Part shown: piece by piece, positions 908-25,444 of the stretch
Layout: the number at the start of each line of letters is the position of its first letter
How positions within the stretch are numbered: the first letter of the stretch is position 1
Origin: Rubeoparvulum massiliense
GTDB lineage: Bacteria > Bacillota > Bacilli > Rubeoparvulales > Rubeoparvulaceae
Direction: 5' to 3'
Length of the DNA: 32,000 nt
Assembly (NCBI RefSeq): GCF_001049895.1
Contig: NZ_CVPE01000006.1
Span: 176,441-208,440 of the forward strand
Program-made: the position numbers and the translations under genes
The notes under the pieces: model-generated
The model's database searches: none
What the model was told of the DNA's origin: nothing
The model's input: only the letters and a program-made list of their open reading frames with translations

Positions 908-2491
908 ATGGAAAAAGGCTACTTCTTATTCAATGATTTTCAAAGGAAGGAGGAACTTGTCATATCAACTTATTATCAGCGATTAATCTCGTATTTGATC
1001 CTCTTCTTTTTACTCTGTTTTTGGATAACAGTCCTAATTGCTCCTGCAGTATATAGCTCCAGTGGACCATTCTCTCCGGATGATTTCTCTTATCCAACCG
1101 ATCTCAAACCTACATACTATCCTACACCCCAAGTAGTAGTCCCCAATGGTACCTCTGATGCAGGTACTGTTACACTTCCTACGATAGAAGTAGACTCCGT
1201 CCAACTAACAGCCTTGGAAATTGCATACCATAGTATAAGTGAAGTTGTATCTCATACTTTGGAGCAAATTAAGATCTATGCGCCAATTGGATGGGAACAA
1301 GGTTCCAAATGGTTCGCCGCTTTTGTAATTCAACCTACTACCTATCATTTCCACGTTCTCTATAATAGTAGAATAGATTCACTAGCATATTGGCATGCAT
1401 TCTTCAATCTTACACTAATGCTTAGTACAATTGTACTAAGCACGATTGTTGCTAGGCAGATCGGAGGCCAATATGTTGCTTCATCCATGCTATGGAATAG
1501 TCTCCAATATGGTCGCTTCAGTATTGGAATACTTCCAGTAACAACTACAACCACCTCCCGATTGATTTCTTCTAGTTGGATAGGCGGATGGATAAGGGGT
1601 AAACTCCCCATCCGAGAGGCTTTTGCCAGTAGGTTTTGGAAAGGAAGAAAGAGCAAGACTTCGGTGATAAATGCTTCTTCTGTTATGAGAGTAAGGCCAC
1701 AACAGTTAGGAGTCATTAGAAATCCATTGACAGGGAATCAGCCACGTTCTTTACAGTCAAAACCAGGTACGATACGATATGCTCAAGTAAATAAGTACCT
1801 AAAAAACAAATTACTTGAGGGGAAAGGGTATCGAGGTGGTGGAGGCTTTTCATTTCGGGGCGAGTTTCGTCAACAGATCGATGCTCCGAGATCAAGTCCC
1901 CCTGCATCTGCGAATCGTGGAAATACATCGAGTTCTTCTAGTTCAGGAAGTAGATCTACGTCAGGATCGATTCGAGGGAATAAGTTTCAATTGCCTAAAA
2001 ACTATAAGGAATACATCAAAGCTGTTGAAAATATGGGTCCAATCTATCGCATCACTAGAGAGCGTTTAAAACTGCCCAGTTCATCCTCCTCTCAGGGAAC
2101 GAAAGGGAAGGGTGAAACTAGACCTACCTGGAAACAGTCCGAAAAGGATGTGGCCAAGGAATATCCAGGCTATAAAGAACAGCAATCTTTTAAAGGCGGG
2201 GAGTCAGTGCAACATGGTACGAGGGGAAGTTCGAGGCCAGATCTTTATATTAAGGGTCATAGTATTGAGGTCAAAAATTATAATGTGACAACTACCTCAG
2301 GTCGAAGCAATTTGGTAAATAACGTATCTAATCAAGTGAATAAAAGAGTAAGTGATTTGCCTATAGGTACAAAACAAACTGTAATTATTGATGTTAGAGG
2401 ACAAAACGTTAGTAGACAGATATTACGAGAGATTAAGTTAGCAATAAATAACAAGACAAATGGAATAGCCAACATTATTTTTAAACAGTAG
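908..2491 (+). CDS. membrane-anchored polymorphic toxin-like protein with C-terminal restriction-endonuclease-fold (PD-(D/E)xK-like) domain
   Basis: N-terminal TM helix (LISYLILFFLLCFWITVLIAPAVY) and a second hydrophobic segment, then a Gly/Ser-rich low-complexity linker. The C-terminus 'ESVQHGTRGSSRPDLYIKGHSIEVKNYNVTT...LPIGTKQTVIIDVRGQ' carries PD...EVK nuclease-type motifs. An Imm70-like gene follows immediately. Confidence 0.75.
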   Translation: MEKGYFLFNDFQRKEELVISTYYQRLISYLILFFLLCFWITVLIAPAVYSSSGPFSPDDFSYPTDLKPTYYPTPQVVVPNGTSDAGTVTLPTIEVDSVQLTALEIAYHSISEVVSHTLEQIKIYAPIGWEQGSKWFAAFVIQPTTYHFHVLYNSRIDSLAYWHAFFNLTLMLSTIVLSTIVARQIGGQYVASSMLWNSLQYGRFSIGILPVTTTTTSRLISSSWIGGWIRGKLPIREAFASRFWKGRKSKTSVINASSVMRVRPQQLGVIRNPLTGNQPRSLQSKPGTIRYAQVNKYLKNKLLEGKGYRGGGGFSFRGEFRQQIDAPRSSPPASANRGNTSSSSSSGSRSTSGSIRGNKFQLPKNYKEYIKAVENMGPIYRITRERLKLPSSSSSQGTKGKGETRPTWKQSEKDVAKEYPGYKEQQSFKGGESVQHGTRGSSRPDLYIKGHSIEVKNYNVTTTSGRSNLVNNVSNQVNKRVSDLPIGTKQTVIIDVRGQNVSRQILREIKLAINNKTNGIANIIFKQ

Positions 2492-2494
2492 GAT

Positions 2495-2920
2495 GTGAAT
2501 AAGATGGCAGTAGGTTTTTTAGTAGATTGCTTTTTTTATGAGGTTGGGAGAGGTGATTTTCTTCATTCATTTTTCTCAACAATTTCTTACCACTTAGAGA
2601 CGGAAGGATGGGGAACGAAATACCCCTATTTATTAAAAAGGCTATACAGGGATAAACTTTCATGGCTTGATGTAGGCAAGGCGCGTGAAGAATTAAGAGA
2701 TATTGAACGCCAATTGCAAGTGATGAGTCCAGATAAAGTAATATGGGACATTGATGATTTATCTCAAAAGCCTCCTTGGGGAGAAAATATTAGTCCAAAA
2801 GTAACAAATCTCGCAAACTATTTTGCTTCAAGTGATGGGAGAACTTTTTTTGAGTTACTATATGCTGCTTTTCAGGTTGCGGAAGAGGATAGGTGTGATA
2901 TTATTATTCACCAGGTATAA
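2495..2920 (+). CDS. Imm70-like immunity protein
   Basis: Starts a few nt after the toxin stop. 'MAVGFLVDCFFYEVGRGDFLHSFFSTISYHLE...WGTKYPYLLKRLY...DKVIWDIDDLSQKPPWGENISP...LANYFASSDGRTFFELL' matches my recollection of the Imm70 family. Start is GTG 2495 or ATG 2504. Confidence 0.8.
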   Translation: MNKMAVGFLVDCFFYEVGRGDFLHSFFSTISYHLETEGWGTKYPYLLKRLYRDKLSWLDVGKAREELRDIERQLQVMSPDKVIWDIDDLSQKPPWGENISPKVTNLANYFASSDGRTFFELLYAAFQVAEEDRCDIIIHQV

Positions 2921-7609: not shown

Positions 7610-7639
7610 CATTGTCAACAAGAGTTATTTGGCGTACAA

Positions 7640-7665
7640 TACATTCAAACAGACATTTGAATGTA
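7640..7665. promoter_or_regulatory. ArsR/CadC/CzrA-type operator
   Basis: Perfect inverted repeat TACATTCAAA-cagaca-TTTGAATGTA directly upstream of the ArsR-family gene. TGAA/TTCA core as in ArsR/SmtB operators. Confidence 0.75.
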
Positions 7666-7669
7666 AGGG

Positions 7670-8038
7670 ATGATGATGATGGTAGCAGATCGCTGTGATA
7701 TCTATCAATTTGATAAAAATAAAGTGGAGCATAGTCAAACAGCATTGGCCCAAATTCCTGCAGAGGGGATGGTGGCCATCTTTAAGGCGTTGGCCGATGC
7801 CACAAGGATGAAGGTAGCCTATGCACTCAGTATTGAAGCGGAGCTCTGCGTCTGTGATGTAGCCAATATTATCGGTGCCTCCACTGCCACGGCCTCTCAT
7901 CATCTGCGCTATCTCTTAAAGCGCCAGGTGGTAAAATTTCGTCGCGATGGGAAGATGGTCTATTACTCCTTAAAGGATGAACATGTGAAGCAGCTCTTAG
8001 AAATCGCCTACCTCCATGCAAAGGAGGAACAACGATGA
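7670..8038 (+). CDS. cadC: ArsR/SmtB-family metal-sensing repressor (CadC-like)
   Basis: 'EGMVAIFKALADATRMKVAYALSIEAELCVCDVANIIGASTATASHHLRYLLKRQVVKFRRDGKMVYYSLKDEHV' includes the ELCVCDVA metal-binding motif. Exact start uncertain (several ATG). Confidence 0.9.
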   Translation: MMMMVADRCDIYQFDKNKVEHSQTALAQIPAEGMVAIFKALADATRMKVAYALSIEAELCVCDVANIIGASTATASHHLRYLLKRQVVKFRRDGKMVYYSLKDEHVKQLLEIAYLHAKEEQR

Positions 8039-10185
8039 GCTCAGAAGCGATGAAGCAAGTTTGGCGTGTACAGGGTTACTCCTGAGCAGACTGTGCTGCT
8101 CAGTTTGAGCAGAATGTGAAGAGGATTCCAGGTGTTGTCGATGCGAAAGTGAACTTTGCTGCAGCGAAAATAACTGTCTGGGGTGAGGTTAGTCGTGAAG
8201 CAGTGGAGGAAGCTGGTGCCTTTGAAAGCTTAAAACTGATGGAGGAGCAGGCCACCTTCACTGACCAGAAGGTTCCTATTTGGAAACGTCCTACCTTCTA
8301 CCAGGTGGTGGGGAGTGGACTCTCGCTCATCCTAGGTTGGTGGACACTGCTTACTGATGTGGAGGAAATCTGGCCTACCTTCTTCTTCGTCTTTACCATT
8401 ATTTTGGGCGGATATGCGCTAATTTGGCGCGGGTTAACGAACCTGACACGCCTCCGCTTTGACATGAGTACATTGATGACGGTTGCTATTCTTGGTGCTG
8501 GTGCATTAGGAGAATGGGGAGAAGGAGCGACCCTCGTCTTTCTCTTTGCCATCAGTGAATGGCTTGAGCGTATCTCCATGGATCAGGCCCGCTCCTCGTT
8601 GCGTAATCTACTGGAGTTGGTGCCACCCGTTGCCCAAGTGATACAAGGAGATGAAGTGATTGCTACCCCTGTTGCGGAAGTGCACCCTGGCGCACGCTTA
8701 TTAGTTCGTCCAGGGGAACAGATTCCCCTAGATGGCATCGTTGTGAAAGGTCTCTCAGCGGTGAATCAAGCGGCCATTACAGGGGAAGCGGTTCCAGAGC
8801 AGAAGCAGCCTGGCGATCCAGTCTATGCTGGTACCTTGAATGGTGATGGCTTGCTCGAGGTAGAAGTGACGAAGGAAGCAGAGGAGAGCACCTTAGCCCA
8901 GGTGATTCAGCTAGTAGAAGAAGCACAGGAGAAGAAGGCACCTGCTCAACAGCTGGTAGATCGCTTTGCCCGCTATTATACCCCCTTGATTATCGCCATC
9001 GCTGGGGCGGTAGCCATTCTGCCTCCACTCTTGGTAGGTCAGGATTGGCAGGCTTGGATCTACCGTGGTCTAGCCATTCTCGTGGTAGGCTGCCCTTGCG
9101 CCTTAGTGATTTCTACACCGGTTGCCATCGTCACAGCTGTTGGCAATGCAGCACGTAATGGTGTACTCATTAAAGGCGGTGCCTATCTTGAAGAGGTGGG
9201 GCGACTCACCACCATCGCCTTCGATAAAACAGGCACCCTAACCCAAGGTAAGCCGCAGGTTACCGATGTGATTCCCCTTGCCGCAGGAGTGGGAGGATCT
9301 GATCTACTTCTCCTTGCCCATCAGCTAGAGGAAGGCTCCAATCATCCATTGGCCACAGCCATTCATCAAGCGGTGGAGGATGGCAAGCTAAAGGGATCCC
9401 CACAACGAGAGCTCATGGAATTTCGAAATCTCCCTGGGAAAGGGATTACCGCCACCATTGCAGGGAAGTCGTACCGCTTGGGACAGAGTAATTGGCTGCT
9501 TTATGAGGAGAAGGTACAATATACGCCTGTCGTGGAGGAATGGATTGAACGCCTTGAGCAGGCAGGCAAAACGGTGATGCTCTTAGCTGATGAGGGGCAG
9601 ATTCTTGGAGTCCTTGCAGCACGTGATGAGCTACGGCCAGAGATCCCCCATGTGGTTCGGACTTTGAAGGAGCTGGGCTTGAAGCATACGGTGATGCTAA
9701 CAGGGGATCATCAACAAACAGCCGTAACCTTGGGAGCTGAAGCAGGCATCGATCAGGTTCAAGCACAGCTCTTACCAGAGGAGAAGCTACGCTATATTGA
9801 GGAACTTGCTCAGCAGGAGCGCGTTGCCATGGTAGGCGATGGCATCAATGATGCGCCGGCGCTGGCTCGCGCCCATGTAGGTATCGCTATGGGTGGCATT
9901 GGTACTGCTGCTGCCATGGAATCGGCACAGATCATTTTGATGGCTGATGATTTACAAAAGCTGCCCTTTACCGTTCGCTTAAGCAGAAGAACCCTGCGGA
10001 TTATTCGCGAGAATATTACAGTGGCGTTGGGATTAAAGCTATTCGCACTCATCTTGATCATCCCAGGTTGGCTGACACTCTGGATGGCCATTTTTGCCGA
10101 TATGGGGGCTACCTTATTGGTGACATTGAATGCATTGCGTCTGCTCCGTGTGAAGAACCACGAAGTGTGCAGAACTGCTGAGTAG
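8035..10185 (+). CDS. cadA: CadA-like heavy-metal-translocating P1B-type ATPase; putative selenoprotein with in-frame UGA at 8083-8085
   Basis: ATG at 8035 overlaps the upstream stop (ATGA) with RBS AAGGAGG at 8021. Read-through gives MSSEAMKQVWRVQGYS-U-ADCAAQFEQNVKRIPGVVDAKVNFAAAKITVWGEV..., aligning UGA with the first Cys of CadA CxxC. Downstream: GCPCALVIS, DKTGTLT and GDGINDAPALARAHVGIAMG all intact. Confidence 0.75.
8083..8116 (+). promoter_or_regulatory. candidate bacterial SECIS element (UGA plus downstream hairpin)
   Basis: UGA at 8083-8085. Perfect 7-bp stem CUGCUCA (8096-8102) / UGAGCAG (8106-8112) around apical loop GUU (8103-8105), with loop G 17 nt after the UGA. The stem can extend via U94-A114, G93-U115, U92-G116 after one mismatch. 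Confidence 0.6.
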
Positions 10186-10223
10186 GAGAAAGTGAAGAAA
10201 CTTCATATCATAAAACAACGAAG

Positions 10224-10264
10224 ACGGCACTGTTTCTCCCTTAAAAATAGAGAAACAGCGCCGT
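10224..10264. terminator. intrinsic terminator between cadA and the DUF378 gene
   Basis: ACGGCACTGTTTCTC ... GAGAAACAGCGCCGT near-perfect 15-bp stem followed by TTTAGTTT, between convergent genes. Confidence 0.8.
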
Positions 10265-10344
10265 TTAGTTTATCTGATCCTACTCTTCGTTATTTTGAAC
10301 ATGGTTGTTTTGAACACGACATCAATGCTACATCATCATGTCTG

Positions 10345-10548
10345 TTATGCTGTTCTCTCAGGTTGGCGATCGCGAAAGAAGAGCGAGATGGCATAGAGGG
10401 CCGAGATACCAACTATTGCATAGATAATCCGACTGATCAATCCCGATTGCCCACCGAAGAGCGCAGCGACTAAATCATATTGAAAGAATCCGATTAAACC
10501 CCAGTTGATTCCACCAATTATAACCATTGCAAGTGCAAATTTTTCCAC
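10345..10548 (-). CDS. DUF378 family small membrane protein
   Basis: 'FALAMVIIGGINWGLIGFFQYDLVAALFGG...RIIYAIVGISALYAI' is characteristic of DUF378. Confidence 0.9.
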   Translation of the reverse strand: MEKFALAMVIIGGINWGLIGFFQYDLVAALFGGQSGLISRIIYAIVGISALYAISLFFRDRQPERTA

Positions 10549-10634
10549 AGTAATGAACCTCCCTTTTTATCAGTACTTAATCTTATTGTGGTACTTTAAA
10601 GGGAGTTTTATACATGGAGTCAACGGAAGTGGTA

Positions 10635-11069
10635 TCATTCCAATTGGACTGGAGTTTTACGAGGATCATCAAGCCAGTAGCGCAGGTAAATGAGATGATC
10701 CGTCGCTTCTTCCAGTAGGATTTCTCCAGATGGTGCGATCCATTGCTCCATCTCACGAAAGGTCTCAACCATATACTCATCGGTCTGGGATTGCTCCACC
10801 ACGACCCAAGAGAATTGCTGTTGTACGGAAGGTGATGGCTGATAGGAAAGCTCACCCTCTAAATATTGGGTAATAGGGATCGTCCGGGCATTATCTACAT
10901 AGGGAAGGTGCCGAATTATTTGGGGGATGGTAAAGGAGCAAAACAGGACGAGACAGCTCATCAGGTAGATGATCAGGAGTTTTTCTAAGGGATGCTTTAG
11001 CGTACCTTGAGAAGCGGTTACTTCATCCATCAAATGATGCTGCTGTTCTTCTAATTGTTCCGGTGACAT
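10635..11069 (-). CDS. hypothetical protein with one TM segment
   Basis: 144-codon ORF, one hydrophobic helix (LLIIYLMSCLVLFCSFTI). No recognised family. Confidence 0.65.
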   Translation of the reverse strand: MSPEQLEEQQHHLMDEVTASQGTLKHPLEKLLIIYLMSCLVLFCSFTIPQIIRHLPYVDNARTIPITQYLEGELSYQPSPSVQQQFSWVVVEQSQTDEYMVETFREMEQWIAPSGEILLEEATDHLIYLRYWLDDPRKTPVQLE

Positions 11070-15645: not shown

Positions 15646-17580
15646 ATGATCTTCTTGCGTATGAAACCAATTCAACGATGGAGCATAATTATTTCTTCAA
15701 TTATACTTCTGATCACAGCACTGCTATTCTACTACTTCAATGCTACCAAGCCCACCGGAAGCGAAGAAGAGGAAGAACTTCAACCACTCAATCTGGAGAA
15801 GCTACCATCTCTGCAGATCGATTTGCATGCCCATTATCAATTGGAGGCCACCCTTCTCCCACAGGAACGTCTGATTGTGGGGACCGCTATCATCACCTTC
15901 GATCTCCCGCCTACATCGGAGGTACATTTCTACTCCTATGCCTACGAGTGGCAACCGATGCAGATTCAGAAGGTGACGCAACAGGGGAAGGAGAAGGAAA
16001 AATCCATTCCCTTCACCTATGACAAGCGTACCATTCAGATTCAAACCAAGGATCTTCAACAAGAGGATGGTCGGAGCAGCTTAACCATCGCCTTTAAGAC
16101 CCCAATCCCAGCGGGGGGTACACGGATGGGGGTGAAGGATTCCATCTGGCTCCTGACCAATTGGCATCCTCAGCTCGGTGTTCTTGATCAGCAGTATCTT
16201 TGGAAGGAACGCCCCCGTCCTCGTGGCTTCGGTGATCCCTTCTACTATTCCCGTGGAGATTATGAGGTGCTCTTTCATGCTCCAGCAGGGTATCACTGGG
16301 TGGTAAGTGGCATGGAAGAGGAGGAGAAACAACAGCAAGATCAGCAGGTGACCTGGTCCTGGAAGGGAAAGGAATTACATAATTTTGCTCTTGTAGGGAG
16401 TCCACATTTTATCATGGAGGATGTGAGGATGGAGGATGGGACGGTGATTCGTTTCGCTGCTTCCGATCCCACGCACTTAGCACAACTAAAGGCCATCGGC
16501 ATCGCTGCGTATCAAGTTTACACAACAGAGTTTGGCCAACTTTCCACCAAGCATTTCGGTGTCATCGAAACAGGCTCAGGAACCAATTATGCTATTGAGC
16601 ATCCCAATCTGGCCATCGTATCACGGGATATGTATGCATATGATCTGATTCAACACTGGTTGCCCCATGAGATTGCCCATTGGTGGTGGTACAATAATCT
16701 TTCCACATGGGAGATCGAGCATGGCTGGGTCGATGAGGGCTTGGCAGAGTTCAGTGTCTATCTCTATACGAAGCAGATGTTCGGTGAAGAGCAGGGTCAT
16801 CAATTACTGAAAGAGTATCAAGATGGTCATCAGCGCCTAATGCAGCTCTTTCCCAATGGTCACCTCGATCAAGGACTCCACAGCTTTTCCAGTCATGAAC
16901 AGTTTGACTACACCTGGTATGATGGTGGCGCCATGCTCTTTTTCAATCTACGGGAACGTATCGGGGAAGAAGAGTTTCTTCATTTTCTTCAACGTTTAAC
17001 CAAGGAGTATGCAGGGATGTATGTGGATGCTCGTCATCTCGATGAAGCCTTAAGTGAGGTTCTCCATGGGAAGGTGAACTATTTTCAGAAAAACGTAGCT
17101 CAGGCCAATCATCATCACTTTGTGGACCCTGATTGGGAGACGGAACCAGGGATTCTCTTTGCACCAGGTAGTGAGATTTTACATCAGCCAAAGGCGTTTA
17201 CAGACCATGCTTATGCCAAAAATGGGCAGCTCTATCTCCCCCTCCGTCCATTGCTAGAGTTAACAGGGGCTGAAGTAAATTGGCATGGAGAAGATGGCTA
17301 TGTGGAATTACGAGATGTTCTGATTGATGAAGGAGAACTATCAGACACATCCGATACGAAACGTAATTCAACGCGTCTCATTACTGTCACCATTCCTTTG
17401 GATGGGAATGTGGTGACACTGAAGGAGAATGAGGTGGAAAGTACCTTCACCATTCCCATGAAGGCATGTAATCGGAATGGTACACTCTATCTTCCTGTTC
17501 AATTCTATGAGACCATTTATAACTGGGAGATCGATTGGCTTAAGGGCGAGAATCAGCTTATCATCGGCGGTGATATCTAG
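15646..17580 (+). CDS. M1-family metallopeptidase with C-terminal copper-amine-oxidase-N-like domains
   Basis: Zinc site 'HEIAHWWWYNNLSTWEIEHGWVDEGLAEF', N-terminal signal anchor, C-terminal 'NGQLYLPLRPLLELTGAEVNW' repeats. Start may be ATG 15661. Confidence 0.85.
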   Translation: MIFLRMKPIQRWSIIISSIILLITALLFYYFNATKPTGSEEEEELQPLNLEKLPSLQIDLHAHYQLEATLLPQERLIVGTAIITFDLPPTSEVHFYSYAYEWQPMQIQKVTQQGKEKEKSIPFTYDKRTIQIQTKDLQQEDGRSSLTIAFKTPIPAGGTRMGVKDSIWLLTNWHPQLGVLDQQYLWKERPRPRGFGDPFYYSRGDYEVLFHAPAGYHWVVSGMEEEEKQQQDQQVTWSWKGKELHNFALVGSPHFIMEDVRMEDGTVIRFAASDPTHLAQLKAIGIAAYQVYTTEFGQLSTKHFGVIETGSGTNYAIEHPNLAIVSRDMYAYDLIQHWLPHEIAHWWWYNNLSTWEIEHGWVDEGLAEFSVYLYTKQMFGEEQGHQLLKEYQDGHQRLMQLFPNGHLDQGLHSFSSHEQFDYTWYDGGAMLFFNLRERIGEEEFLHFLQRLTKEYAGMYVDARHLDEALSEVLHGKVNYFQKNVAQANHHHFVDPDWETEPGILFAPGSEILHQPKAFTDHAYAKNGQLYLPLRPLLELTGAEVNWHGEDGYVELRDVLIDEGELSDTSDTKRNSTRLITVTIPLDGNVVTLKENEVESTFTIPMKACNRNGTLYLPVQFYETIYNWEIDWLKGENQLIIGGDI

Positions 17581-18345: not shown

Positions 18346-18681
18346 TTATAAGGTAAGCACTTCGTATTGGTTGGCCAATTCAATAAAGTGTTTCATACTA
18401 GAGAGCTCACCGACGGTCATTTGATCCTGCAGTCCATAATAGTCGATACAGGTTTTGCATGCCAGAATGGAAACACCACTCTTTTCAAGCGCCTTTAACT
18501 GTAAGGAGATCACTGATTTGGCGGTGAGTGTAAAGACACCGCGATTCAAGCAGAAGATAGCCACCGGCTTCTCCTCTTCCTGTTTTAAAATAGTAAAGAA
18601 ATTCTCCAGTAAAGCTTCACCTAGCTCTTCATCGCCAGTGCCTAAGCGGTCTGATTGAAGAAGAATTACACGATTTTTCAT
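18346..18681 (-). CDS. DsrE-like domain protein resembling the C-terminal half of selenium metabolism protein YedF
   Basis: 'VILLQSDRLGTGDEELGEALLENFFTILKQEEEKPVAIFCLNRGVFTLTAKSVISLQLKALEKSGVSILACKTCIDYYGLQDQMTVGELSSM' matches the SDxxGxGDxELGxxLxxxF and ILxCxTCxDYYGL signatures of YedF. N-terminal TusA-like domain absent. Confidence 0.75.
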   Translation of the reverse strand: MKNRVILLQSDRLGTGDEELGEALLENFFTILKQEEEKPVAIFCLNRGVFTLTAKSVISLQLKALEKSGVSILACKTCIDYYGLQDQMTVGELSSMKHFIELANQYEVLTL

Positions 18682-23332: not shown

Positions 23333-25444
23333 ATGAAAGATGATGAATTTTTAATAAATGGCCAGGCCTTGCCTCCACTACTTGAAGTAGGCCGAGAACT
23401 TCTTCATGTACTGAACGAAGCAGGCTATGAGGCTTATTTTGTTGGCGGTGCAGTACGAGATTATTTGCTCCATCGGCCCATTCACGATGTGGATATTACA
23501 ACCAATGCCTTGCCCGATGAGGTGGTTCAGCTCTTTCCAGCCGTAATCCCAACAGGAATGGCTCATGGTACGGTGACGGTACGCTGGAAGGGCTTCTCCT
23601 TTGAAGTCACCACCTTCCGCACCGAGGGAGAGTACCTCGATCACCGACATCCTGCAGCGGTTCAATTCGTTCATTCCCTCACGGAGGATCTAGCCCGCCG
23701 TGACTTAACCATCAATGCCATGGCCATGGATGGGGAGGGGAAGCTATACGATCCCTATGGAGGGAGGGAGGATCTTCAGAATCGGCTGTTGCGAGCGGTA
23801 GGTGATCCTCAACAACGTTTTGCTGAGGATGCCCTGCGGATGATCCGTGTTTTCCGTTTTCAGTCACAGTACCAATTTCAGATTGAAGAGACCACGTTGC
23901 AGGGCATCAAGGCGGAAAGAGGTGGTCTTCCTCTAATTGCTGCAGAGCGGATCGCCGATGAGTTTTGCAAGCTTCTTCGTGGACCAGGGTTTCTCCATGC
24001 CCTTCAACTGCTCGCGCAATTTCTTGTGCTTCAGCATCCTCGCTTACCTATACTGGAAAAACTGGTGAAGCATCCACCTGCTCTGTTCTTGCAGAGACGG
24101 ATAGATTCCCTCCACTTCCTGGCTGAAGAGCCAATGGACCCACTGATTCTCCGGCTCTTATTACTTGGGCACATGGCCACGCTCAGTGAAGCAGAGTTTA
24201 GTAAATTGGGCTATGAGCTATTTTTGCCCCGCGAGACGCGAAGGCTTCTCACAAGCTCCTATGGCTTACTCAGTGAATGGATTGAAGAGAAGTATGCAGA
24301 GAATCACTGGAAGGCAGAATGGCTGGATCTGCCACAGGAATGCATCGCCTATACGTGGGCGGCCTATTGGATCTGTGGGAAGCTCAGCAAGGGAGAGCAA
24401 GAGATAGCTGAGCTTGGGGGTGCAAATCTTCATGAGCTCTATCAATCAGAACGTAGCCAGTGGCAACGTTTCTATGAGGAACTCCCCATCCGTCACTCCC
24501 AGGAATTGCAGCTCGATGGAAACCTGCTGCTGCAGTTGATTCCTGTAGCAGCAGGACCATGGATTGCGCGACGGCTAGAGCAACTGGTCTTGGCTGTTCA
24601 TATGGGGCATCTTAAGAATGATCGTGAGGAGCTATGCCACTTTCTGCAGCAGGGCTATGCCGAAGAACTGCAAATCCGTGAGCATCTTCATACTGAATGG
24701 CTAGGTCACCAACTCTATGTCCTACCTGTAGTGGATAGCACGCAACGGGAAGCACAACGACTGTGGAAAAAGGGTGGTGCTAATGGAACGGTGGTGGTAG
24801 CACAGCATCAAACTGCTGGTCGTGGTACGAGAGGACGAATCTGGCATTCGCCTCCACAATCAGGAGCTTGGTTTAGTATGCTCTTGCAGCTCCCCATCGA
24901 TCTTAAGAGGGCACCTATCATCACCCTCCTTACAGCGGTGGCACTTTATGAAACATTGCTCAACTGGTGTCAACCAGAACAGCTTCAGATTAAATGGCCC
25001 AATGATCTCCTTCTAGCAGGGAAGAAATGTGCAGGTATCTTAACAGAGCTACATCATCATGATGAGCATGGTGCTCAATTGGTCATCGGTGTTGGGGTCA
25101 ACCTGAACCAGGAGCACAATGACTTTCCAATGGAATTACAGGAGCACGCAACCTCCTTAGCTATGGGAACTGGCGAAAAGGTCCAACCTTCATTGCTGAT
25201 TGCCTTATTCTTAGCTAAAATGGAGGAATGGCTGGCCCTATATCAACAAGAAGGAAATTCGGCTGTGCTTCATGCATGGACAAGCTATGCTGGAATGATC
25301 GGTCAACGGGTCATGACACAGCTAGAAGGCAAGGATACCAATGTGATTATCCATGGCTTGGATGAGCAGGGTAGACTCCTTCTCCTTGATAAGCAGGGTA
25401 CTATTCACACTTTAGTTTCAGGGGAGATCAGACTCAATCCTTGA
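23333..25444 (+). CDS. fused CCA tRNA nucleotidyltransferase / biotin-[acetyl-CoA-carboxylase] ligase (BirA catalytic domain)
   Basis: N-terminal 'AYFVGGAVRDYLLHRPIHDVDITTNALP...RRDLTINAMAMD' (CCA-adding) continues in frame to 'VVDSTQREAQRL...VVVAQHQTAGRGTRGRIWHSPP...IKWPNDLLLAGKKCAGILTE' (BirA). Single 703-codon ORF. Confidence 0.93.
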   Translation: MKDDEFLINGQALPPLLEVGRELLHVLNEAGYEAYFVGGAVRDYLLHRPIHDVDITTNALPDEVVQLFPAVIPTGMAHGTVTVRWKGFSFEVTTFRTEGEYLDHRHPAAVQFVHSLTEDLARRDLTINAMAMDGEGKLYDPYGGREDLQNRLLRAVGDPQQRFAEDALRMIRVFRFQSQYQFQIEETTLQGIKAERGGLPLIAAERIADEFCKLLRGPGFLHALQLLAQFLVLQHPRLPILEKLVKHPPALFLQRRIDSLHFLAEEPMDPLILRLLLLGHMATLSEAEFSKLGYELFLPRETRRLLTSSYGLLSEWIEEKYAENHWKAEWLDLPQECIAYTWAAYWICGKLSKGEQEIAELGGANLHELYQSERSQWQRFYEELPIRHSQELQLDGNLLLQLIPVAAGPWIARRLEQLVLAVHMGHLKNDREELCHFLQQGYAEELQIREHLHTEWLGHQLYVLPVVDSTQREAQRLWKKGGANGTVVVAQHQTAGRGTRGRIWHSPPQSGAWFSMLLQLPIDLKRAPIITLLTAVALYETLLNWCQPEQLQIKWPNDLLLAGKKCAGILTELHHHDEHGAQLVIGVGVNLNQEHNDFPMELQEHATSLAMGTGEKVQPSLLIALFLAKMEEWLALYQQEGNSAVLHAWTSYAGMIGQRVMTQLEGKDTNVIIHGLDEQGRLLLLDKQGTIHTLVSGEIRLNP

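Follow-up and report, generated by a model that had tools for sequence, protein, structure and literature searches.

The in-frame TGA at positions 8083-8085 of the window, by which the whole analysed stretch of 32 kb is meant, is probably a selenocysteine (Sec) codon within a cadC-cadA operon, standing where the first metal-ligating cysteine of a CadA-type heavy-metal pump would otherwise be encoded. This reading draws on direct observations, namely the codon itself, its frame, the domain alignment, a recurrent exchange of TGA and Cys codons, selection acting in relatives both before and after the UGA, and a conserved, covarying hairpin. The operon comprises the following features.

7612 to 7640, plus strand: sigma-70-like promoter of the cadC-cadA operon, TTGTCA-17-TACAAT, predicted by a consensus scan (10/12)
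7640 to 7665, plus strand: perfect 10-nt inverted repeat, TACATTCAAA-N6-TTTGAATGTA, 100% complementary and overlapping the -10 box; candidate CadC operator
7670 to 8038, plus strand: gene of a cadC-like ArsR/SmtB metalloregulator with a C-V-C motif (ELCVCD) and Pfam HTH_5
8021 to 8027, plus strand: Shine-Dalgarno sequence AAGGAGG, 7 nt 5' of ATG 8035, read directly
8035 to 10185, plus strand: full-length CadA-type P1B-ATPase gene, 716 codons including UGA-17, TAG stop, from translation
8047 to 8244, plus strand: N-terminal HMA metal-binding domain, residues 5-70, with U17-x-x-C20 and the Glu of AFES (8218-8229)
8083 to 8085, plus strand: in-frame UGA, residue 17, at the first Cys of CxxC; predicted selenocysteine codon
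8092 to 8094, plus strand: TGT, C20, second metal-ligating Cys of UxxC, read directly
8116 to 8118, plus strand: GTG, the start chosen by automatic gene callers, giving a 689-aa product that lacks UxxC
9091 to 9099, plus strand: CPC transmembrane metal-site motif, residues 353-355, from translation
9223 to 9237, plus strand: DKTGT phosphorylation motif, residues 397-401, from translation

The sequence and its translation agree with the earlier note in that the ATG at 8035-8037 overlaps the cadC stop codon TGA at 8036-8038 (ATGA) behind the AAGGAGG, and that the TGA at codon 17, followed by GCA GAC TGT (Cys20), is the sole interruption of the 716-codon ATPase frame. Downstream of it, 699 codons are open to the TAG at 10183-10185 and the catalytic motifs are complete. 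The placement of the UGA on the first metal-ligating Cys of CxxC, also proposed there, is borne out by two alignments, the Pfam HMA match over residues 11-59 (with Cys put in at the UGA) and the comparison of the N-terminal domain with the Cd-binding domain of Listeria CadA (2AJ0/2AJ1; E=4e-21), where the UGA falls on the first Cys of C-T-N-C. That the automatic start at GTG 8116 loses the CxxC holds beyond the one gene caller, as the public gene calls P0001 and P0242 of the same gene begin at this codon as well.

The core of the protein matches Pfam PF00122 (E1-E2_ATPase, 1.4e-54) and PF00702 (Hydrolase, 1e-36), scores 616 bits against TIGR01525 (cutoff 346) and 523 bits against TIGR01512 (cutoff 313) and carries CPC, DKTGT, HP, GDGxNDxP and TGE, the last in the variant TGEA for TGES. 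By domain, family-cutoff and motif criteria the gene is thus a P1B-2 (CadA/ZntA-type) heavy-metal ATPase, with predicted transport of Cd, Zn and Pb. The upstream gene product, with 89.8 bits against NCBIfam NF033788 (cutoff 55), is by its sequence a CadC (ArsR/SmtB) metalloregulator, on account of HTH_5 above the family cutoff and of the CVC Cys pair in the alpha-3 region. The inverted repeat presumably resembles cad operators, and from this likeness and its position it is likely to be the CadC operator. With a predicted promoter and operator, a Shine-Dalgarno sequence, translational coupling and complete catalytic motifs, the gene looks usable.

A one-off sequencing error is excluded at 8083-8085, since three independent assemblies, the window, L002 (SRR33304997) and L083 (SRR33304998), which differ at about 0.7% of sites (99.3% identity), agree on TGA. 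The comparison was extended to 80 homologous loci (species-level) from other Bacillales, obtained by a scan of genome contigs. The alignment of homologues across this codon, which the earlier note had called for, revealed a recurrent exchange at exactly the aligned codon: 20 of the 80 loci have TGA, and the remaining ones TGT or TGC. Together with the window and L002, TGA is found in 22 sequences, next to 63 aligned Cys codons (TGT/TGC). The TGA-type genes form one clade of 16 members and at least three scattered lineages. The ATPase of the window is a lone long branch among these homologues, so that the tree does not trace its TGA back to a Sec-type ancestor.

In the largest TGA clade, the eight codons 5' of the UGA display a pS of 0.54 and a pN of 0.015 (ratio 0.03), compared with a ratio of 0.15 downstream, which shows strong purifying selection on the peptide upstream of the UGA and indicates that ribosomes of this family translate the UGA as a sense codon. 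In the window-type group, pN/pS is 0.38 upstream and 0.35 downstream of the UGA. The three strains of the window species are identical over the UGA-flanking segment, which is therefore uninformative on selection within the species.

Two pairings involving the region immediately after the UGA are predicted.

8096 to 8112, plus strand: predicted bacterial SECIS hairpin, CUGCUCA (8096-8102), loop GUU (8103-8105), UGAGCAG (8106-8112)
8083 to 8102, plus strand: alternative hairpin UGAGCAG/CUGCUCA, in which the same 5' arm pairs back onto the UGA codon; minimum free energy fold of 8083-8150

With -8.3 kcal/mol, a 7-bp stem, a 3-nt loop that starts with G-U and 17 nt from the UGA to the loop, the first hairpin lies within all four published criteria for bSECIS elements, that is a loop of 3-9 nt with a G among its first two nucleotides, a stem of 4-16 bp, a distance of 16-37 nt from the UGA and an energy of -7.5 kcal/mol or lower (PMC13188914 Fig. 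2A). Its register is kept in four other TGA lineages (L018, L040, L050 and L054), with compensatory changes in three of the seven pairs. Among all homologues, the median energy of the best hairpin is -7.9 kcal/mol in TGA-type versus -2.4 kcal/mol in Cys-type genes (MWU p=1e-9), and a perfect stem occurs in 17 of 19 TGA-type versus 3 of 56 Cys-type sequences. The TGA-type hairpin has 97% of cells paired versus 26-50% in slid controls, compensatory changes being present. Cys-type genes which encode the identical AAQFE peptide mostly retain three of the seven pairs, and in the register of the window all seven pairs are found in none of the 56 Cys-type genes. Among synonymous recodings of the peptide, 1% yield a perfect stem in this register and 12% any hairpin of -8.3 kcal/mol or lower; taken by itself, the hairpin of the window is only moderately improbable. 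Fold z-scores of the whole region were not significant, the local comparative analysis alone being informative, and a search of Rfam at gathering and permissive thresholds gave no SECIS match, a result counted as uninformative and not as negative. The exchange in 20 of 80 loci, the purifying selection upstream, the covarying hairpin of TGA-type genes and its agreement with the bSECIS criteria jointly speak for the Sec residue (UxxC) that the earlier note had postulated.

Ribosomes would begin the ATPase at ATG 8035, behind the strong Shine-Dalgarno sequence and in translational coupling with the end of cadC, and the 17-nt hairpin with its GUU loop, beginning 10 nt past the UGA, would recruit SelB-GTP-Sec-tRNA(Sec) for Sec insertion. 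The product would be a 716-aa CadA-type Cd/Zn/Pb P1B-ATPase with an N-terminal HMA domain in which U17-x-x-C20 replaces CxxC, its regulatory metal site consisting of a selenolate and a thiolate, probably complemented, as in Listeria CadA, by the conserved Glu of AFES. We infer, rather than observe, that Sec is actually inserted in the source organism and that the metal chemistry of the site may differ; the effect on affinity or redox behaviour put forward in the earlier note is speculative. Neither selA, selB, selD nor tRNA-Sec was found within the 32-kb window or contigs L001, L002 and L083, and a scan of 22 loci for tRNA-Sec found none.

Elsewhere in the window, an ORF at 18346-18681 encodes a YedF-like 'selenium metabolism' domain (DsrE/YedF-like), the sole hint of selenium metabolism. 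As a candidate second selenoprotein it was rejected on its clean ATG start at 18681 and the lack of an in-frame TGA extension upstream; other TGA-split frames in the window turned out to be trivial intergenic cases.

That TGT or TGC in an ordinary Cys-type cadA recently mutated de novo to the nonsense codon TGA, next to a coincidental hairpin, is very unlikely. One base change would be enough, the flanks of a young mutation would still look intact, 12% of recodings give some hairpin about as stable, and the relaxed ratio of nonsynonymous to synonymous changes described below is compatible with it. On this point the reasoning of the earlier note had to be amended: the flanks are indeed colinear with the family and the frame is open, but as an argument excluding a nonsense mutation this is weak alone, because a recent change of TGT or TGC to TGA would look alike. 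The scenario is, however, difficult to reconcile with a stop exactly at the codon that is conserved as TGA in 20 other lineages, with a hairpin which shares the register of four of the other TGA lineages and whose perfect form is rare among recodings and absent from the Cys-type genes, and with the fixation of the TGA in three strains. Even more improbable is reading of the UGA outside a Sec system, by a reassigned code (Trp or Gly) or efficient near-cognate suppression. UGA is leaky in Bacillus, but TGA serves as an ordinary stop in 5 of the 32 window genes, one of them cadC, where it overlaps the start of the ATPase, so the genome is not recoded and genome-wide reassignment is ruled out by stop-codon usage; moreover, homologues have Cys and not Trp or Gly in the UGA column, and the conserved downstream hairpin is a hallmark of SelB-dependent decoding.

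More weight, although it is still unlikely, has to be given to a gene which is Sec-type by descent and now not or poorly decoded, the Sec machinery being lost or seldom active. Translation would then stop at the UGA after 16 residues, the ATPase would be absent, or made without its metal-binding motif via re-initiation at GTG 8116 or low near-cognate read-through, and the gene would be subject to drift. The ATPase varies within the species by nine nonsynonymous changes (in eight codons), one codon indel and two synonymous changes, and the ratio of 9:2 compared with 15:46 in 16 neighbouring genes (Fisher p=5e-4) suggests relaxed constraint. In line with such drift, 36 of 270 columns conserved in the family are altered in this protein, among them TGES (here TGEA) and the GTD..ExAD hinge, and truncations of ZntA and CadA indicate that P1B-2 pumps can transport without their N-terminal domains. 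The 699 codons nevertheless contain no second stop or frameshift, the sole indel is in frame, of the eight replaced codons a single one falls in a conserved column, with a conservative change (V409I), synonymous divergence of the ATPase is below and not above that of its neighbours, unlike simple pseudogene drift, and the hairpin is still perfect. The 36 deviations were discounted as evidence of decay, since much of the divergence of the ATPase is explained by the long branch of the whole organism, a deep-branching Bacilli lineage whose DinG is only 38% identical to the nearest named relative. As a speculative extension, with little probability assigned to it, the UGA and hairpin may switch between two pump isoforms according to selenium supply, with selenium yielding the full-length protein and its selenolate-thiolate site, and its lack leading to a stop after 16 residues and re-initiation at GTG 8116, hence a pump without the metal-binding motif. 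Pairing of 8083-8089 with 8096-8102 could tune this choice, and the excess of amino-acid polymorphism would reflect ongoing adaptation and not decay.

Decoding of the UGA as Sec would place the gene in a family that is already on record. "Cation-transporting ATPase E1-E2, UxxC" figures among the listed bacterial selenoprotein families (2016 ISME J, PMC5029168; review PMC13188914), predicted computationally since 2007 and comprising 32 selenoproteins in 25 organisms, and many Bacillales are documented carriers of the Sec trait. The gene of the window is therefore not of a new kind, and the novelty implied by the earlier note does not stand; judged by its sequence, the ATPase is most likely a well-supported additional member of the known UxxC family, without a new mechanism. 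As in the published description, which sets the extent of the likeness, the protein is P1B-type above the TIGR01525 cutoff, with predicted Sec for the first Cys of CxxC, a hairpin after the UGA and Cys-type homologues, whereas its host belongs to a deep-branching Bacilli lineage, whose selenoprotein repertoire thereby gains a well-supported predicted member. With TGA in 20 of the 80 sampled loci, Sec-type CadA pumps appear common in Bacillales and are systematically annotated without their metal-binding domain. The publications consulted contain no biochemical characterisation of a Sec-containing P1B-ATPase, which makes the TGA-type and Cys-type genes, as a natural U versus C pair at a structurally defined Cd site, a tractable system for the effect of selenium on soft-metal binding.

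Compared with SelB/SECIS decoding of the E. coli fdhF type, an in-frame UGA and a close, small stem-loop are common to both. The minimal E. coli SECIS element is a 17-nt upper stem-loop 11 nt downstream, to which the hairpin of the window, of 17 nt and starting 10 nt past the UGA, comes close, although the sequences are dissimilar, the loop is GUU and not that of fdhF, and the role of SelB is predicted. TGA-type CadA genes of Bacillaceae (e.g. Cytobacillus firmus, Sporosarcina globispora, Robertmurraya andreesenii, Niallia, Indiicoccus and Aquibacillus) share with the window the identical TGA codon and a downstream hairpin; unlike the window, the large Bacillaceae TGA clade has a shifted hairpin (ACGUUC-GAAGA-GAACGU) and a second one. 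The public annotations of these TGA-type genes give products of 649-676 aa, truncated at the N-terminus and devoid of HMA. Their identity to Listeria CadA is about 78%; the gene of the window, by contrast, sits on a long, distant branch, and its ATPase shares only about 50-56% identity with any known CadA. With the Cys-type CadC-CadA operons of Listeria monocytogenes and Staphylococcus pI258 type it has in common an ArsR-family CadC ahead of a CadA P1B-2 ATPase, an inverted-repeat operator (predicted here) over the promoter, a single N-terminal HMA domain and the motifs CPC, DKTGT, HP and GDGxNDxP. It differs from them in TGEA for TGES, in GTAAAMESAQ for GTDxALExAD and in the codon of the first metal-ligating Cys, which is UGA.

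The gene for the CadA-type P1B-ATPase is preceded by a cadC-like gene and the motif AAGGAGG, and a candidate bacterial SECIS element (bSECIS) lies shortly behind the in-frame UGA:

7670-8038, forward strand: cadC-like ArsR/SmtB gene, its TGA stop and ATG 8035 overlapping in ATGA
7 nt 5' of ATG 8035: AAGGAGG
8096-8112: candidate bSECIS of the window, CUGCUCA-GUU-UGAGCAG

From ATG 8035 the frame reads MSSEAMKQVWRVQGYS-UGA-ADCAAQFEQNVKRIPGVVDAKVNF… and stays open until TAG 10183-10185, with TGA 8083-8085 as the sole interruption; start, overlap and single UGA are thus as the earlier note had described them. With Cys put at the UGA, the product contains the Pfam domains HMA (the N-terminal metal-binding domain), E1-E2_ATPase and Hydrolase and scores above cutoff for NCBIfam TIGR01525 and TIGR01512, heavy-metal and cadmium-family P-type ATPases. 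Its N-terminal 70 residues match the Cd-binding domain of Listeria CadA, for which the structure is solved (2AJ0/2AJ1; E=4e-21), and the UGA falls on the first Cys of the CTNC motif; this alignment and the Cys codons of homologues support the proposed replacement of the first metal-ligating Cys of CxxC. Automatic gene callers choose GTG 8116 as start, whereby, as had also been noted, the motif is lost from the product.

A sequencing or assembly artefact is ruled out, as the identical TGA with identical flanks is present in two further assemblies of the species from other sequencing runs, L002 (SRR33304997) and L083 (SRR33304998), each approximately 99.3% identical to the window. Equally ruled out is a recoded genome, as TGA is the normal stop in five of the 32 window genes, cadC among these.

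A scan of species-representative genomes, in which the closest match to the window ATPase is 55% identical, provided 80 homologous CadA loci from Bacillales. Alignment across the codon, which the earlier note had suggested as a check, uncovered the UGA/Cys exchange, with TGT at 33, TGC at 30 and TGA at 22 of 85 aligned positions (positions rather than loci, comprising the 80 loci, the window and L002, a few loci adding a second HMA domain). The 22 TGA are those of the window, L002 and 20 other loci, whose carriers include Cytobacillus firmus, Sporosarcina globispora, Robertmurraya andreesenii and Bacillus benzoevorans as well as Melghiribacillus, Indiicoccus and Aquibacillus. On the protein tree, TGA-type genes form one internally diverse 16-member clade and at least three lineages scattered among Cys-type genes, with the window/L002 pair as a lone long branch. 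In the large clade, the eight codons 5' of the UGA show a pS of 0.54 and a pN of 0.015 (ratio 0.03), compared with a pN/pS ratio of 0.15 for the next 50 codons 3' of it; it follows that the segment 5' of the UGA undergoes in-frame translation and that its amino-acid sequence is maintained, contrary to what a UGA merely ending translation would lead one to expect.

TGA-type genes possess a stable hairpin 13-35 nt past the UGA; their best energies have a median of -7.9 kcal/mol, versus -2.4 kcal/mol in Cys-type genes (Mann-Whitney p=1e-9, uncorrected for relatedness). Two registers occur. In the window register, which loci L018, L040, L050 and L054 also use, the stem joins columns 14-20 to columns 24-30 (numbering starts at the U of UGA), 97% of cells are paired versus 26-46% in slid controls, and compensatory double changes have occurred in three of the seven pairs (U-A/C-G, G-C/U-A, A-U/G-C). 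The hairpin of the large clade, ACGUUC-GAAGA-GAACGU plus a second hairpin, has 96.7% of cells paired versus 30-50% in controls, with G-C/A-U exchanges at synonymous third positions. Of the 19 distinct TGA-type sequences, 17 form the stem of one or the other register perfectly, against 3 of 56 Cys-type sequences; in Cys-type genes whose AAQFE or AKTFE peptide is identical, three of seven pairs are the usual number.

The published bSECIS model requires a loop of 3-9 nt with a G within its first two positions, a stem of 4-16 bp, a UGA-to-loop distance of 16-37 nt and an energy no higher than -7.5 kcal/mol (PMC13188914). With its 3-nt loop G-U-U, 7-bp stem, 17-nt distance and energy of -8.3 kcal/mol, the window hairpin agrees on every count. 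Upon synonymous recoding of the window peptide with its own genome's codon usage, 12% of recodings give any hairpin of -8.3 kcal/mol or better and 1% pair perfectly in the register shared with the other loci, so the evidence from the window by itself is moderate; it is homology with the other TGA-type genes alone that makes it strong. UGAGCAG is present twice (8083-8089 and 8106-8112), and the arm CUGCUCA (8096-8102) can therefore form the SECIS with the copy 3' of it or fold back onto the UGA codon; partial backward pairing seems, by eye, present in other window-type TGA genes too.

The best explanation, and probably the correct one, is that in this CadA-type pump gene TGA 8083-8085 genuinely encodes selenocysteine (Sec) and has a bSECIS of its own. 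That a nonsense mutation arose here de novo is very improbable, and decoding of the UGA as something other than Sec even more so. The main rival, itself unlikely, is a relic of the Sec type, which this lineage decodes poorly or has ceased to decode. The ATPases of the three strains differ by nine nonsynonymous (eight codons) and two synonymous substitutions and one in-frame codon indel, as against 15 and 46 in sixteen neighbouring genes (omega ~0.10; Fisher's exact p=5e-4), an excess that indicates relaxed or diversifying selection within the species. Against outright decay, however, stand a 699-codon frame with no further stop or frameshift, a single replaced codon in a family-conserved column (V to I) and a synonymous divergence below that of the neighbours. 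Deviations at family-conserved residues are largely due to the isolation of the organism, whose DinG is only 38% identical to that of the nearest named relative. Its CadA does not exceed 56% identity with any named relative. That Sec changes soft-metal affinity or makes the pump redox-sensitive is speculation.

Between L002 and L083, from adjacent runs, window 7620-11069 contains four differences in 3.4 kb, all nonsynonymous and in the ATPase (W113C, V119A, Y490H, V499A). A 15-bp intergenic indel 3' of the ATPase (10293-10307) distinguishes the window from both other strains. Six window/L002 substitutions inside 22 bp of the peptidase M1 gene (codons 183-190; 16194-16215) suggest either recombination over a short tract or assemblies that differ locally.

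The source organism belongs to a deep-branching Bacilli lineage (GC 46%), is otherwise found in four Logan runs only and has no entry in the GTDB collection of species representatives that was scanned. selA, selB, selD and tRNA-Sec are absent from the 32-kb window and three extra contigs. A 111-aa DsrE-like ORF (18346-18681, reverse strand) aligns with the C-terminal domain (positions 84-187 of 194) of TIGR03527, "selenium metabolism protein YedF", and scores 107.9 bits, below the cutoff of 110. This ORF is solitary, with neither a TusA-like N-domain nor an in-frame TGA upstream, and is the sole possible hint that the organism metabolises selenium.

Elsewhere in the window, a 703-aa ORF (23333-25444, forward strand) fuses a CCA tRNA nucleotidyltransferase (residues ~19-243 and beyond) to the biotin-protein ligase BirA (~450-701), genes which in Bacillus adjoin but stay separate; gene calls on independent Logan contigs give this fusion as well. 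A 527-aa ORF in 908-2920 (forward strand), without Pfam or NCBIfam match, may constitute a polymorphic toxin/immunity pair with the Imm70 immunity protein gene directly 3' of it (2495-2920).

The cation-transporting ATPase E1-E2 with UxxC was already counted among the known selenoprotein families by Zhang and Gladyshev (2007) and is one of the top 20 in bacteria, with 32 proteins in 25 organisms (Peng et al., 2016; PMC5029168). According to the supplement of the latter survey, SelD/SelA/SelB are found in many Bacillales and SelA and SelB are missing in Sporosarcina ureae DSM 2281, the sole directly overlapping case, in agreement with its Cys-type CadA (L078). TGA-type CadAs of Cytobacillus and relatives are represented in public protein databases only by N-truncated products of 649-676 aa without HMA, which looks like a systematic mis-annotation of a selenoprotein clade. 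Such entries, found in NCBI, UniProt and JGI for TGA-type genes among the homologous loci L003-L082 (e.g. L039, L063, L048, L068, L073), concern Cytobacillus firmus/oceanisediminis and other Bacillaceae, with approximately 78% identity to Listeria CadA. The window ATPase is most likely a further member of this known selenoprotein family, and the system itself is not of a new kind.
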